The notes beneath the pieces are model-generated. The model was not told where the DNA came from and ran no database searches. It saw only the letters and a list, made by a program, of their open reading frames with translations. The translations under genes were made by a program, and so were the position numbers. Positions 8,980 to 14,513 of a DNA stretch of 64,000 bases are shown here, in pieces (the first letter of the stretch is position 1; the number at the start of each line of letters is the position of its first letter). The DNA lies in the NCBI RefSeq assembly GCF_002854065.1, contig NZ_CP024147.1; one strand, written 5' to 3'. The DNA comes from Escherichia coli. Lineage in GTDB: Bacteria; Pseudomonadota; Gammaproteobacteria; Enterobacterales; Enterobacteriaceae.

Positions 8980-9922
8980 CTATTATCCATAAAGATAATT
9001 CAATGTGTCGCTTTGGAATATCAAGCGTAGCTACTAACTTCTCGATAAAATCAACCTGAGATACTGTTCCTTTAACAAGTAAACTGTTGGTATCAGGATA
9101 TGCAATAATTTGTATATCGTCAGTCTCTGGCGCTCCTGCTGTCGATATTATTTTCTCTACTTGTAGGTCATCATCTTCTTCAGCACCAGGAAAAGGAGGC
9201 ATACGTGATACGTTTTTTAGTTGTTGACGACTTGAAATTTCAGAAAGTACGTTCACCCCTGTGCTTTGCTTAATGTTATTATTTAACAACGTCGATAGTA
9301 CTTTTGCCATGCCAGGAATAATTATCTTTTCGCCACGTAACTCATAAGTCCGGTCATTAACGAATGTGTTGACCAGATGAATTATTCCTACTTTATTTCG
9401 ACCGATCTCAATGCCATCGCTGTTTTGCTCCATTAATTTCGCAGCATTAACGACCAGGTCAACATAAACCGGTGGCCCCGATACATAGAAAGTACCATTG
9501 CCGCCCCCTTTAATTTCATAACGAGAGTTATACAGACCCGATTTTTTTAAGAAATTATTAAACTCATTCGTCGATACCTTTCTCAGATTAATCAATGCAT
9601 TACGCATCTCTGATGAGTCATAGATATAAATAGCTTTGCCATCATCATACCAAATAAGCCCAATCTGTGCCGACAGGCGTTCAATCAAGGCATAGGGTTC
9701 TGTTAAATCAAAATTCCCGCTGATCTGTTTCTTCATGGCAAGCTTACTAACTATTGTAGGCTTACCCGCATATGATGAAACCGTTTCAAAAAAACTACGT
9801 AGATTTTCTTTATTTGCTACGTATCCATTCGCTGCTGCGGCATATGCACCAGGAGTCAATAATCCATTAAAAATGCATAAGACTGAAATTAATATAATAG
9901 TAATGCGTAATTTTATTTTCAT
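8980..9922 (-). pseudogene. eivG: Truncated type III secretion secretin (InvG/EivG-like), N-terminal ~313 codons only
   Basis: Signal peptide plus N-domain resembling InvG (GLIWYDDGKAIYIYD, FYVSGPPVYVDLVVNAA, AYPDTNSLLVKGT); the frame runs into the IS1 end and stops at a TGA inside IS1 (8975-8977); the secretin C-domain is absent. Confidence 0.8.
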
Positions 9923-10668
9923 AACTTTTTACATAGTTCTCTCGGTATTTTTCCTAACCGGCTTTTTACTTCGGCTGAAAAGTGTGATGAGGACGAGTAA
10001 CCATATTTATGCGCAATAGTTGTCATATCACTGTTTCCTTCAATCATTTCCAACACGGCTCTGGCAACTCTCCAGCCACATAATTCCGTTTTAACTTTAC
10101 CACCCAATGCATAACTACATAAACGGCGAAAATGTGAATACGATACGCCGTAAAGATCACCAAGATCATAGAGTGAAGTCTGTATGAGCGATTGCGATAA
10201 TAAATAACGAACCAGTTTATAGCATTCTGTTTTTCTTAGATGCTGAAACAGGATTTCATTAATATTATCGCTGCTCAGATAAGTGGCTAAAAACCAGGCT
10301 TCACTTGCAACTTTACTGAATAGCACAACTTCTGATGCAAAGGGCAAGGCATCAGCAAACAATTCATGATGTTCCCTTTCCACACTCCCCGTTGATTCAT
10401 CTATAAAAGCTAATAATTTACTCAGGATATCAATGCGAAGTGGATGATAAATTACTTTCCCTGCAGTTACCTCAATTTGGCTTCGGTCAATGAGCAGTAA
10501 TATATCTTCCACTACCATTAATTTTTGATGGTTATTACCAATCGTAATAACAAGGGTTACATCCTTGTTTTCATTTCCCCGTAAGAACCACATTTCAGGG
10601 TCCAGTAGGGTTAACTTCTGTCCTTGAAGCAAAACATTCATTGGAAGTAACAGCCCTTCTTCAATCAT
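9919..10668 (-). CDS. eivF: AraC-family type III secretion regulator (InvF/EivF-like)
   Basis: 249-aa ORF with a C-terminal AraC-type helix-turn-helix; its stop overlaps the secretin start (ATGA), as in invF-invG; very AT-rich. Confidence 0.8.
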   Translation of the reverse strand: MIEEGLLLPMNVLLQGQKLTLLDPEMWFLRGNENKDVTLVITIGNNHQKLMVVEDILLLIDRSQIEVTAGKVIYHPLRIDILSKLLAFIDESTGSVEREHHELFADALPFASEVVLFSKVASEAWFLATYLSSDNINEILFQHLRKTECYKLVRYLLSQSLIQTSLYDLGDLYGVSYSHFRRLCSYALGGKVKTELCGWRVARAVLEMIEGNSDMTTIAHKYGYSSSSHFSAEVKSRLGKIPRELCKKL

Positions 10669-11013
10669 GTTTCATCTCCTTATTCCATATTCTCATTCTC
10701 CATAAACTTGCTATAAAAACATGATTAAAAAGTGATGATTACTATTTATAAAATAATGATTTTGTTATGAGCGAATAGCTATCAGCCACTTACACTAGTA
10801 CGTCATCTTGTCTATATACAGATTTGTAACTGTTGATATGTTTTACTTAAACACACCTCGTATTTCTTATAACACTTGTTTGGTAACTATTTTCAATACA
10901 AATCATATTTGTTAGTTCTTCATTAACACACTGCGAGTGTTTTGTTACTCCCCGCATATATTTTATTCTCTTGTTCGATTCTATTTTTCTTAATCGATCA
11001 TATAATTTTCTTG

Positions 11014-11193
11014 TTAGTCGGATTTACGAATCATGAGACTTATAATGGAAGGAATGAGACTAAGCGGCCAGGTTAAACCTGTAATTATTGCAGCAAACAA
11101 CCGATATGTTACTTTTTCTTCCGAGAAGATAAATATTAAAGTCGATGTCACAACCAGACCTATCAGGTAAGCTAACAGTAATTTATTGATCAC
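11014..11193 (-). CDS. Hypothetical small membrane protein (59 aa, two predicted helices)
   Basis: GTG start 5 nt after GGGAGG; translation MINKLLLAYLIGLVVTSTLIFIFSEEKVTYRLFAAIITGLTWPLSLIPSIISLMIRKSD; absent from the ORF track (below 60 aa). Confidence 0.45.
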   Translation of the reverse strand: MINKLLLAYLIGLVVTSTLIFIFSEEKVTYRLFAAIITGLTWPLSLIPSIISLMIRKSD

Positions 11194-11259
11194 TTTTACC
11201 TCCCCTTTCGATTTCTCTTTGAGCGGTCCTTTTAATCCAGGACCGCCTCATTATGAAAA

Positions 11260-12870: not shown

Positions 12871-13002
12871 AAAATATTCCATCAATCGTTTGTTAAAAGC
12901 GTAGATAACCATAGACTGGCCCCCTGAATCTCCAGACAACCAATATCACTTAAATAAGTGATAGTCTTAATACTAGTTTTTAGACTAGTCATTGGAGAAC
13001 AG

Positions 13003-13368
13003 ATGATTGATGTCTTAGGGCCGGAGAAACGCAGACGGCGTACCACACAGGAAAAGATCGCAATTGTTCAGCAGAGCTTTGAACCGGGGATGACGGTCTC
13101 CCTCGTTGCCCGGCAACATGGTGTAGCAGCCAGCCAGTTATTTCTCTGGCGTAAGCAATACCAGGAAGGAAGTCTTACTGCTGTCGCCGCCGGAGAACAG
13201 GTTGTTCCTGCCTCTGAACTTGCTGCCGCCATGAAGCAGATTAAAGAACTCCAGCGCCTGCTCGGCAAGAAAACGATGGAAAATGAACTCCTCAAAGAAG
13301 CCGTTGAATATGGACGGGCAAAAAAGTGGATAGCGCACGCGCCCTTATTGCCCGGGGATGGGGAGTAA
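13003..13368 (+). CDS. insC: IS2 protein InsC (OrfA)
   Basis: 121-aa [21 protein letters not shown]..., RBS GGAG upstream; the track ORF starts 15 codons earlier inside the terminal repeat. Confidence 0.95.
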
Positions 13369-14231
13369 GCTTAGTCAGCCGTTGTCTCCGGGTGTCGCGT
13401 GCGCAGTTGCACGTCATTCTCAGACGAACCGATGACTGGATGGATGGCCGCCGCAGTCGTCACACTGATGATACGGATGTGCTTCTCCGTATACACCATG
13501 TTATCGGAGAGCTGCCCACGTATGGTTATCGTCGGGTATGGGCGCTGCTTCGCAGACAGGCAGAACTTGATGGTATGCCTGCGATCAATGCCAAACGTGT
13601 TTACCGGATCATGCGCCAGAATGCGCTGTTGCTTGAGCGAAAACCTGCTGTACCGCCATCGAAACGGGCACATACAGGCAGAGTGGCCGTGAAAGAAAGC
13701 AATCAGCGATGGTGCTCTGACGGGTTCGAGTTCTGCTGTGATAACGGAGAGAGACTGCGTGTCACGTTCGCGCTGGACTGCTGTGATCGTGAGGCACTGC
13801 ACTGGGCGGTCACTACCGGCGGCTTCAACAGTGAAACAGTACAGGACGTCATGCTGGGAGCGGTGGAACGCCGCTTCGGCAACGATCTTCCGTCGTCTCC
13901 AGTGGAGTGGCTGACGGATAATGGTTCATGCTACCGGGCTAATGAAACACGCCAGTTCGCCCGGATGTTGGGACTTGAACCGAAGAACACGGCGGTGCGG
14001 AGTCCGGAGAGTAACGGAATAGCAGAGAGCTTCGTGAAAACGATAAAGCGTGACTACATCAGTATCATGCCCAAACCAGACGGGTTAACGGCAGCAAAGA
14101 ACCTTGCAGAGGCGTTCGAGCATTATAACGAATGGCATCCGCATAGTGCGCTGGGTTATCGCTCGCCACGGGAATATCTGCGGCAGCGGGCTTGTAATGG
14201 GTTAAGTGATAACAGATGTCTGGAAATATAG
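13326..14231 (+). CDS. insD: IS2 transposase InsD (OrfB), IS3 family
   Basis: 301-aa ORF overlapping insC in the -1 frame; DDE-type integrase core. Confidence 0.95.
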
Positions 14232-14439
14232 GGGCAAATCCAAACCACTTATTTAACAACTTGAAAATAAGGTATTTTACCTGGGTTGTTATAAAAGGAT
14301 TGCATTGCGTAAACGCTTTTTATTTACAAAATAATGGGGAAGTGTTACTGCGATTGCGAAAAGTCTGAACCGATTGAATTAAGATAATATAGAAAATCAG
14401 ATACAACAAAAATGGCAGGTTGATGAGGTGAAGATAAAT

Positions 14440-14513
14440 TGGAGCGGGCGAAGGGAATCGAACCCTCGTATAGAGCTTGGGAAGCTCTCGTTCTACCATT
14501 GAACTACGCCCGC
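14440..14513 (-). tRNA. glyU: tRNA-Gly (anticodon CCC)
   Basis: Minus-strand 74-nt sequence GCGGGCGTAGTTCAATGGTAGAACGAGAGCTTCCCAAGCTCTATACGAGGGTTCGATTCCCTTCGCCCGCTCCA; cloverleaf with CCC anticodon and encoded CCA. Confidence 0.97.

Follow-up and report, generated by a model that had tools for sequence, protein, structure and literature searches.

ETT2 and its reduced forms

ETT2, the second type III secretion island of Escherichia coli and usually defunct, is ancient, low in G+C, and SPI-1-like; the primary account of its attrition is said to be that of Ren et al. in 2004. The island has a published G+C content of 36.9%, compared with 50.8% for the genome, and the gene table for strain Sakai gives ECs3733 as eivG, ECs3734 as eivF, ECs3735 as a ydcX-like gene, and ECs3736/3737 as pkgA (PMC3977695). 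Reviews describe 10-11 deletion isoforms, in which either 3-13 genes are missing or the right end has lost 5-8.7 kb (PMC11068852, PMC3977695). The remnant in K-12 MG1655 consists of yqeH-ygeO, IS2H, and ygeP/ygeQ, that is, the left third of the island plus the 5' 1.18 kb of pkgA; its IS2 lies within the pkgA/ygeO deletion junction.

We describe here a different reduced form, found in a 64,000-nucleotide stretch of E. coli DNA (RefSeq assembly GCF_002854065.1, contig NZ_CP024147.1) that is referred to below, as a whole, as the window. The locus lies between yqeG (6015-7244) and glyU (14440-14513), and its flanks are collinear with K-12 positions 2979833-3048969. Its features are as follows.

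6015-7244, plus strand: yqeG, amino-acid permease gene; ORF of 409 aa, 99.8% identical to K-12 YqeG
7421-8188, minus strand: IS1a, 768 bp; simple insertion with a 9-bp duplication, GCATAACTT (7412-7420 and 8189-8197)
8198-8211, no strand: native yqeG-yqeH spacer, 14 bp, AGATTCGCAAGATA, left between IS1a and IS1b
8212-8979, minus strand: IS1b, 768 bp; no target duplication; at the deletion junction
about 8975-9922, minus strand: eivG', truncated ORF for an SctC/InvG-type secretin
9919-10668, minus strand: eivF, intact ORF of 249 aa for an InvF-like AraC-family regulator
11014-11193, minus strand: intact gene for an ECs3735-type small membrane protein of 59 aa (GhoT/OrtT family, ydcX paralogue)
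11260-12870, minus strand: pkgA/ygeQ-type gene, intact ORF of 536 aa for a GH15-like protein
12912-14242, plus strand: IS2, 1,331 bp; simple insertion with a 5-bp duplication, AACCA (12907-12911 and 14243-14247)
14243-14439, no strand: native pkgA-glyU spacer, 197 bp, 31.5% G+C; collinear with O157 and XJ34
14440-14513, minus strand: glyU, tRNA-Gly(CCC), found by ARAGORN and Rfam; identical to K-12 glyU
15435-16202, plus strand: IS1c, 768 bp; simple insertion with a 9-bp duplication, AACGCGGTA, in the actS-xdhA divergent spacer

The low-G+C block is the glyU-proximal end of ETT2

The first-pass annotation, made from the sequence without database searches, had described the DNA between the second IS1 copy and glyU as visibly AT-rich and had placed in it a secretin fragment, an InvF-like regulator, a small membrane ORF, and a GH15-like gene. 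All four genes are present where it had located them, and the impression of composition was accurate. The stretch from 8980 to 12911 has a G+C content of 38.1%, whereas 1,046 equal-length windows taken from the IS-free remainder of the window average 50.6 +/- 2.1%, with a minimum of 46.0% (z = -6.0 for the block). GC3 is 0.32-0.37 in the four remnant genes, compared with 0.49-0.53 in yqeG, actS, and xdhA.

Over these 3,932 bp, ungapped alignments extend to the glyU-proximal end of ETT2 in O157:H7 PV15-279, at 99.5% identity, and to the ETT2 of strain XJ34, at 99.8%. The annotated order sctC/eivG, eivF, GhoT/OrtT-family gene, GH15 gene, tRNA-Gly, actS, xdhA is common to O157, XJ34, and the window. 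The gap-free, collinear match to complete islands supports the suggestion of an ETT2-type island at glyU. The gene set also differs from that of K-12, as the first-pass annotation had stated: none of eivG, eivF, and the OrtT-like gene is present in K-12. Because the block resembles neither core DNA in composition nor K-12 in content, its reading as an ETT2 remnant stands. It is the right-hand (glyU-proximal) end, about 4 kb, of ETT2, from which the remainder has been removed. The full SPI-1-like apparatus set (epr/epa/eiv) is absent from the locus, which keeps eivG codons 1-314 and eivF. The proposal that the block is bounded by IS1 and IS2 survives on one side only; the left border is indeed IS1b (8212-8979), but IS2 has inserted within the remnant itself, 197 bp from glyU.

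IS1 and the loss of 24 kb

The last core gene on the left is yqeG. The spacer that follows it (7245-7420) is native, and the left flank is collinear with K-12, O157, and XJ34 as far as 7420. IS1 is an element of 768 bp with imperfect terminal inverted repeats of about 23 bp and insA/insB' ORFs, and it produces a 9-bp target duplication. The three copies found here are 100% identical to one another, have inverted repeats matched at 18 of 23 positions, and contain ORFs of 91 aa and 167 aa. Perfect duplications flank IS1a (9 bp), IS1c (9 bp), and IS2 (5 bp), but none flanks IS1b, whose neighboring sequences are mismatched (CGCAAGATA on the left, CTATTATCC on the right), as expected after a deletion. 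In uninterrupted genomes the 23 bp at the IS1a/IS1b site, GCATAACTTAGATTCGCAAGATA, run contiguous. In the window, native sequence reaches 8211 and is followed by IS1b and then by eivG at codon 314. The missing stretch, from yqeH to the middle of eivG, amounts to about 24 kb (24,301 bp by the coordinates of XJ34, 25,969 bp by those of O157 PV15-279), and IS1b marks the junction of this ETT2 deletion. The IS1-eivG junction is absent from the complete E. coli genomes (0 of 5,426), and a 37-mer spanning it had no match among the GTDB species-representative genomes. IS1c, inverted relative to IS1a and IS1b and located outside the island, belongs to the same IS1 burst; its junction had no single-piece match among the complete genomes searched.

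Near-identical relatives, whose flanking core DNA is 99.8-100% identical to that of the window, have deletions nested with this one. Strain 100416 has an IS1 at exactly the left junction of IS1b, with its right end in eivA. CUWW06 has an IS1 at the left junction of IS1a that joins eivF at codon 24 on the right, and is the only one of 5,426 genomes in which that left junction occurs in one piece. The slightly more distant XJ34 (99.7%) retains a near-complete island. CUWW06 and 100416 carry IS1 in at least 39-40 places each, a load consistent with recent IS1 activity. More widely, IS1 lies within about 0.5 kb of this location in 36-37 genomes. In strain 74-2 the location has other ETT2 deletions bounded by IS1, and in CUVM53 an IS1 forms the boundary with unrelated T6SS DNA. 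Next to glyU, both CUWW06 and 100416 also retain 294-530 bp of a P4-type integrase island. No such remnant is present in the window, so placing the three strains on a simple tree requires either precise excision or recombination.

The presence of three IS1 and one IS2 within 9 kb raised the question of a Shigella origin. This is ruled out: the 42 K-12 core genes examined across the window are all full length and stop-free, no IS occurs in the window beyond 7.4-16.2 kb, and the closest genomes, at 99.7-100%, are ordinary E. coli.

The glyU-proximal remnant was very probably left by an IS1b adjacent deletion in an IS1-rich E. coli lineage; the fixed left ends and variable right ends seen across relatives point to deletions of this type. 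The transposition mechanism and the order of events we infer as follows. IS1b would have inserted 190 bp past the end of yqeG, in the AT-rich spacer, after which its right end would have deleted adjacent island DNA through intramolecular transposition ("adjacent deletion"). The loss probably took two steps, the first of about 20.5 kb up to eivA and the second of a further 3.8 kb into eivG, and would have removed yqeH through eivE along with the last 253 residues of the secretin. Separate simple insertions would account for IS1a, 14 bp further left, for IS2 upstream of pkgA, and for IS1c between actS and xdhA. Sequence comparison would allow either relative order of IS1a and IS1b.

The same ETT2 remnant could instead have arisen by RecA-dependent recombination between direct IS1 copies, one following yqeG and the other in eivG, and we consider this somewhat unlikely but a genuine possibility. 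Mismatched flanks such as those of IS1b are exactly what a recombinant IS would leave, and identical IS1 copies, present by the dozen in the lineage, would provide ample homology. Transposition intermediates are invisible in sequence, and recombination would give an equal final structure at IS1b. However, no IS1 is found at the eivG site in complete E. coli genomes (0/5,426), although a same-orientation insertion there would share the IS1-eivG junction that was searched for. Moreover, the relatives join one left IS1 end to three right points, in eivA, eivG, and eivF; recombination would need three prior IS1 insertions, whereas adjacent deletion needs none.

An assembly artefact, from repeat collapse or duplication at IS copies, is a highly improbable source of the tandem IS1 pair and the deletion. 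IS elements are classic points of mis-assembly, and the tandem arrangement IS1a-23 bp-IS1b is known from the window only. Nevertheless, each junction is found separately in complete genomes of relatives, and the exact 9-bp native duplication around IS1a is not something that an artefact would create. The IS1-eivG junction itself recurs in four independent contigs (L006-L009) from other read sets and metagenomes, one of which, Logan contig L006, also spans the IS2-pkgA junction (identity 99.94-99.98%).

The glyU border and IS2

As the first-pass annotation had noted, the 3' end of the tRNA (14440, on the minus strand) points toward the AT-rich island DNA. The idea that the block is a separately acquired small island integrated at glyU, rather than a remnant, deserves almost no credence: it does adjoin the tRNA 3' end, its composition is foreign, and integrase islands occur at glyU in other E. 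coli, but no integrase ORF was found between glyU and IS1, the last 16-24 nt of glyU have no other copy in the window at up to two mismatches (a test weakened by deletion of the original far border), the block and the terminal genes of complete ETT2 islands are collinear, at the high identity given above, and the secretin gene is interrupted mid-ORF by IS1.

IS2, a member of the IS3 family, is 1,331 bp long, has orfA/orfB with a frameshift, and makes a 5-bp target duplication. The copy here, with ORFs at 12958-13368 and 13326-14231, lies upstream of pkgA, 41 bp from the ATG, and turns its left (transposase-start) end toward that gene. It is 99.9% identical to K-12 IS2H over 1,331-1,332 bp, but occupies a different site in the opposite orientation. 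The IS2-pkgA junction is likewise missing from all 5,426 complete genomes. That the IS2 of CUWW06 represents the same insertion is unsupported, as its right flank there is a 294-bp integrase-island remnant that is absent from the window. Scans for promoters and terminators, run to see whether IS2 has cut pkgA off from its promoter, gave counts equal to the shuffled expectation, the sole promoter-like site in the intact spacer being the glyU promoter. An Rfam search of the entire window returned the tRNA alone, with no known sRNA in the remnant.

Genes of the remnant

Secretins of the SctC/InvG type combine N0/N1 domains with a C-terminal pore domain. The truncated eivG' keeps residues 1-314 of 567, followed by a Gly and a stop supplied by the IS1 end, and lacks the C-terminal secretin domain of full-length orthologues. 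It scores 216.5 bits to the SctC model TIGR02516 (cutoff 238.45), matching profile positions 3-193 of 463. Its Pfam domains are N0 and Secretin_N only, whereas full-length neighbors carry PF00263. To judge by its sequence, eivG' is a dead secretin stub.

The product of eivF equals O157 EivF in length and differs from it by three amino acids. It scores 182 bits to the InvF model NF011868, under the 259-bit equivalog cutoff; its orthologue is named EivF in RefSeq, and an HTH_18 domain is recorded. InvF-type AraC regulators have a C-terminal AraC HTH and depend on a chaperone co-activator of the SicA/IpgC class, and the co-activator gene ygeG falls within the deleted stretch. GhoT/OrtT toxins are two-helix membrane peptides of roughly 57-60 aa that match PF10753. 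The 59-aa protein of the remnant, a putative toxin, is identical to WP_001301699.1 of O157 and XJ34, annotated "GhoT/OrtT family toxin", and PF10753 is recorded for the corresponding gene in loci L010-L014.

The hallmark of GH15 is an (alpha/alpha)6 catalytic domain with two catalytic glutamates. The pkgA product begins with a signal or lipoprotein-like sequence and matches PF00723 weakly over residues 113-413 (E 3.3e-4, 20 bits); a comparison with NCBIfam gave no match. Its best PDB matches by sequence are non-catalytic GH15-like domains of phosphorylase kinase alpha and beta, with the beta subunit first at E 1.6e-3. It differs from the O157 protein by four amino acids and from that of XJ34 by two, and the exact protein is encoded by many E. 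coli assemblies. At least part of pkgA persists in more genomes than does the adjoining eivG'-eivF DNA.

The surviving intact genes, eivF, the OrtT-like gene, and pkgA, are orphaned. We infer that the remnant cannot act as a type III secretion system because both the secretion apparatus and the YgeG co-activator are missing from the locus. It is doubtful, although conceivable, that the three genes are retained as a working mini-module and not as mere debris. Such a module could take the form of an orphan EivF regulating genes elsewhere; EivF represses LEE in EHEC. Alternatively, IS2 could be rewiring expression of the GH15-like pkgA.

Comparison with known systems

The case in the window is ordinary ETT2 attrition, of a kind described since 2004, and adds one more allele. 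It has little importance beyond strain typing, for which the unique junction sequences could be clone-specific markers. This strain would come out as "ETT2-positive" in a PCR that targets eivF or pkgA, although no secretion system could be built from what it retains. Taken with 100416 and CUWW06, it offers a clean natural example of IS1 eroding a pathogenicity island, with one anchor fixed and the end points differing.

A similar isoform may already be drawn in the account of Ren et al. from 2004; the comparison made here is with isoforms as given in reviews. The window shares with these the "widespread mutational attrition" and the IS transposases within the cluster, but it loses about 24 kb on the left and retains the right end. 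Like the complete O157-type ETT2, the locus occupies the yqeG...glyU site, is low in G+C, and has the same terminal gene order. Unlike the complete island, which has about 35 ORFs, it has lost roughly 30 of them (yqeH to eivE) together with 45% of eivG at the 3' end, and carries two IS1 and an IS2. Its pkgA is a single ORF of 536 aa, compared with two in the Sakai table.

With the K-12 remnant it has in common the locus, IS-associated attrition, and a nearly identical IS2, which in K-12 has the opposite orientation. The island DNA present in both is limited to 11734-12911 and a short spacer adjoining glyU; of what K-12 retains, the window has only pkgA, and the part of the island that it keeps is the right end. 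A mechanistic parallel is with classical IS1 adjacent deletions, the gal/chl deletions that Reif and Saedler reportedly described in 1975 as running from a fixed IS1 end. Those were experimental, while the present case is reconstructed from natural isolates; in the window, 100416, and CUWW06, as in the classical deletions, one end is fixed, the joins vary, and the target duplication is lost.

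Layout and identity of the island remnant

The window is a chromosomal E. coli segment running from lysR to gcvP, collinear with positions 2,979,833-3,048,969 of K-12 MG1655 at 97.4-99.0% identity, and all 42 of the 42 K-12 core genes tested are present at full length. Interruptions relative to other E. coli are confined to 7.4-16.2 kb of the window.

Features of the interrupted region and its borders, with strand where assigned
6015-7244, plus strand, yqeG
7421-8188, IS1a, the leftmost of three IS1 copies
23 bp of native DNA between IS1a and IS1b
8212-8979, IS1b
8978-9922, minus strand, truncated secretin ORF (eivG')
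9919-10668, minus strand, AraC/InvF-like ORF (eivF), 249 aa
11014-11193, minus strand, membrane ORF (OrtT-like), 59 aa
11260-12870, minus strand, GH15-like ORF (pkgA), 536 aa
12912-14242, IS2
197 bp of native DNA between IS2 and glyU
14440-14513, minus strand, tRNA-Gly(CCC) gene glyU
14592-15347, minus strand, actS
15435-16202, IS1c
from 16540, plus strand, xdhA

Elsewhere in the window, ygfF, which in K-12 lies between bglA and gcvP, is missing at 61035-61153; because the resulting bglA-gcvP junction occurs in 2,348 of 5,426 complete genomes, this is a common presence/absence polymorphism. Intergenic indels at 28617-28660 (yqeA-yqeB) and 58374-58402 (ygfZ-trhA) correspond to about 140 bp and about 90 bp of K-12 sequence, possibly REP-type elements, missing from the window.

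The first-pass annotation had proposed an ETT2-type island at glyU. The secretin fragment, InvF-like regulator, small membrane ORF, GH15-like gene and tRNA gene that it listed all lie where it placed them, and the proposal is upheld by alignment and gene order. The block at 8980-12911 aligns without gaps over 3,932 bp to the glyU-proximal end of ETT2, with 99.5% identity to O157:H7 PV15-279 and 99.8% to XJ34, and the RefSeq gene order at both loci, sctC (eivG), eivF, GhoT/OrtT-family toxin, GH15-family protein, tRNA-Gly, actS, xdhA, is that of the window. In Sakai nomenclature the stretch from eivG to pkgA is ECs3733-ECs3737 (PMC3977695). EivF, the small membrane protein, and PkgA have the lengths of their orthologues, with 3, 0, and 4 amino acid differences from O157, respectively. 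EivG is cut off after residue 314 of its 567, and the IS1 end then contributes one Gly codon and a stop codon. Family searches are in line with the RefSeq names. Against model TIGR02516 only the N-terminal part of the secretin fragment is matched, with a score under the cutoff. The eivF product scores 182 bits against the InvF model, whose equivalog cutoff is 259, and the pkgA product matches GH15 weakly in Pfam (E 3.3e-4), its best PDB sequence matches being the non-catalytic GH15-like domains of phosphorylase kinase.

The block is AT-rich, as the annotation had it. The G+C content of non-IS sequence in 8980-12911 is 38.1% (z = -6.0 vs the rest of the window), against 50.6 +/- 2.1% (lowest value 46.0%) in 1,046 same-length windows from the remaining IS-free sequence. 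GC3 is likewise lower, at 0.32-0.37 in the four island genes vs 0.49-0.53 in yqeG, actS, and xdhA. The glyU gene is identical to that of K-12, and its 3' end does face the AT-rich block. The description of the island as bounded by IS1 and IS2 holds on the left, where IS1b adjoins the block, but IS2 is inserted inside the remnant: the spacer between IS2 and glyU is native DNA with a G+C content of 31.5%, collinear with other strains.

IS1b and the loss of 24 kb

Genomes without an insertion at the left site carry GCATAACTTAGATTCGCAAGATA uninterrupted. In the window, GCATAACTT flanks IS1a on both sides as a normal 9-bp target duplication. IS1b is flanked on its left by the next 14 native bases and on its right by eivG codon 314, with no target duplication, and therefore marks a deletion. 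Measured on XJ34 the deletion is 24,301 bp, and on O157 PV15-279 it is 25,969 bp; each reference has an IS of its own within the deleted span. Lost are the genes from yqeH to eivE, together with the pore domain of the secretin. All three IS1 copies match one another at 768 of 768 positions.

Close relatives differ at this locus. XJ34, 99.7% identical over 24 kb of neighboring core DNA, has a near-complete ETT2. Strain 100416 (flanks 99.8-99.9% identical) lacks IS1a and has an identical IS1 at the exact left junction of IS1b, with its right end in eivA, 3,807 bp short of the end point in the window. CUWW06 (100.0% over 24 kb) has an IS1 at the left junction of IS1a with its right end at eivF codon 24, and pkgA is gone as well. 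Fixed left ends with variable right points are the pattern classically left by IS1-promoted adjacent deletion, an intramolecular transposition in which the left IS1 end would stay in place while the right end point varies. We consider this mechanism the likelier one. The same end product would be left by homologous recombination between two directly oriented IS1 copies, but that route is less likely, as it requires earlier IS1 insertions in eivA, eivG, and eivF, and an IS1 at the eivG site is found in 0 of 5,426 complete genomes.

CUWW06 and 100416 share a P4-type integrase island remnant of 294-530 bp beside glyU that the window lacks, so precise excision or recombination also acted at this locus. 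In both strains the stump (retrieved loci L017, 22816-23109, and L022, 18147-18676) is an integrase fused to an IS, and other E. coli loci (L011, L012, L014-L016) have P4-type integrase islands at glyU, between the tRNA and pkgA.

IS2 and IS1c

A 5-bp duplication, AACCA, flanks IS2, which is a simple insertion. It lies 41 bp upstream of the pkgA start codon, its transposase-start end towards pkgA; promoter scans found nothing above chance. IS1c is a simple insertion in the divergent actS-xdhA spacer, with the 9-bp duplication AACGCGGTA. Either gene's promoter could be affected by it: the insertion lies upstream of both, at 87 bp from the actS start and 337 bp from the xdhA ORF. Its exact junction was found in no complete genome, and in 26 genomes an IS1 lies a few hundred bp or less from the site.

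Occurrence of the arrangement

Neither the IS1b-eivG nor the IS2-pkgA junction occurs in any of 5,426 complete RefSeq E. coli genomes, and the former is also absent from GTDB representative genomes. Four contigs of independent origin, taken from other read sets and from metagenome assemblies, carry the IS1-eivG junction. One contig, of 3,988 bp, has the IS1 end and the IS2 end as its exact limits. Identity is 99.94-99.98%. The isoform is therefore real and circulating rather than an assembly artefact.

The eivG'-pkgA segment is kept at least in part in 3,990 of the 5,426 genomes, 982 of which have at least 80% of it; a sampled listing includes several genomes with pkgA alone, and K-12 strains with only its 5' part. 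An IS1 lies within about 0.5 kb of the yqeG-proximal spot in 36-37 complete genomes, and some of these have ETT2 deletions or rearrangements of their own that are bounded by IS1. The yqeG-yqeH spacer (7245-8211; 28-35% G+C) is a recurrent IS1 target. IS1 links yqeG to a T6SS tssM fragment in CUVM53, and two IS1 copies bracket ygeI-pbl' in strain 74-2.

Function and comparison with known ETT2 loci

Judging by gene content, the remnant cannot encode a secretion system, since the locus no longer has the apparatus genes or the chaperone/co-activator gene ygeG. EivF reportedly influences LEE expression in EHEC (reviewed in PMC11068852, PMC3977695), and EivF and YgeG produced together did not switch on two MxiE-box genes (PMC9241512). 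PkgA has been suggested to be a T3SS effector (PMC2808357), a suggestion that fits poorly with the signal or lipoprotein-like sequence at its N-terminus.

The retained gene set differs from that of K-12, as had been anticipated. K-12 has yqeH-ygeO, IS2H, ygeP, and ygeQ, and lacks eivG, eivF, and the OrtT-like gene; the only island DNA common to both is 11734-12911 and the spacer adjoining glyU. The feature is a further allele in the long-described mutational attrition of ETT2, known in kind, with strain-specific junctions, and a neat example from nature of how IS1 nibbles at an island.
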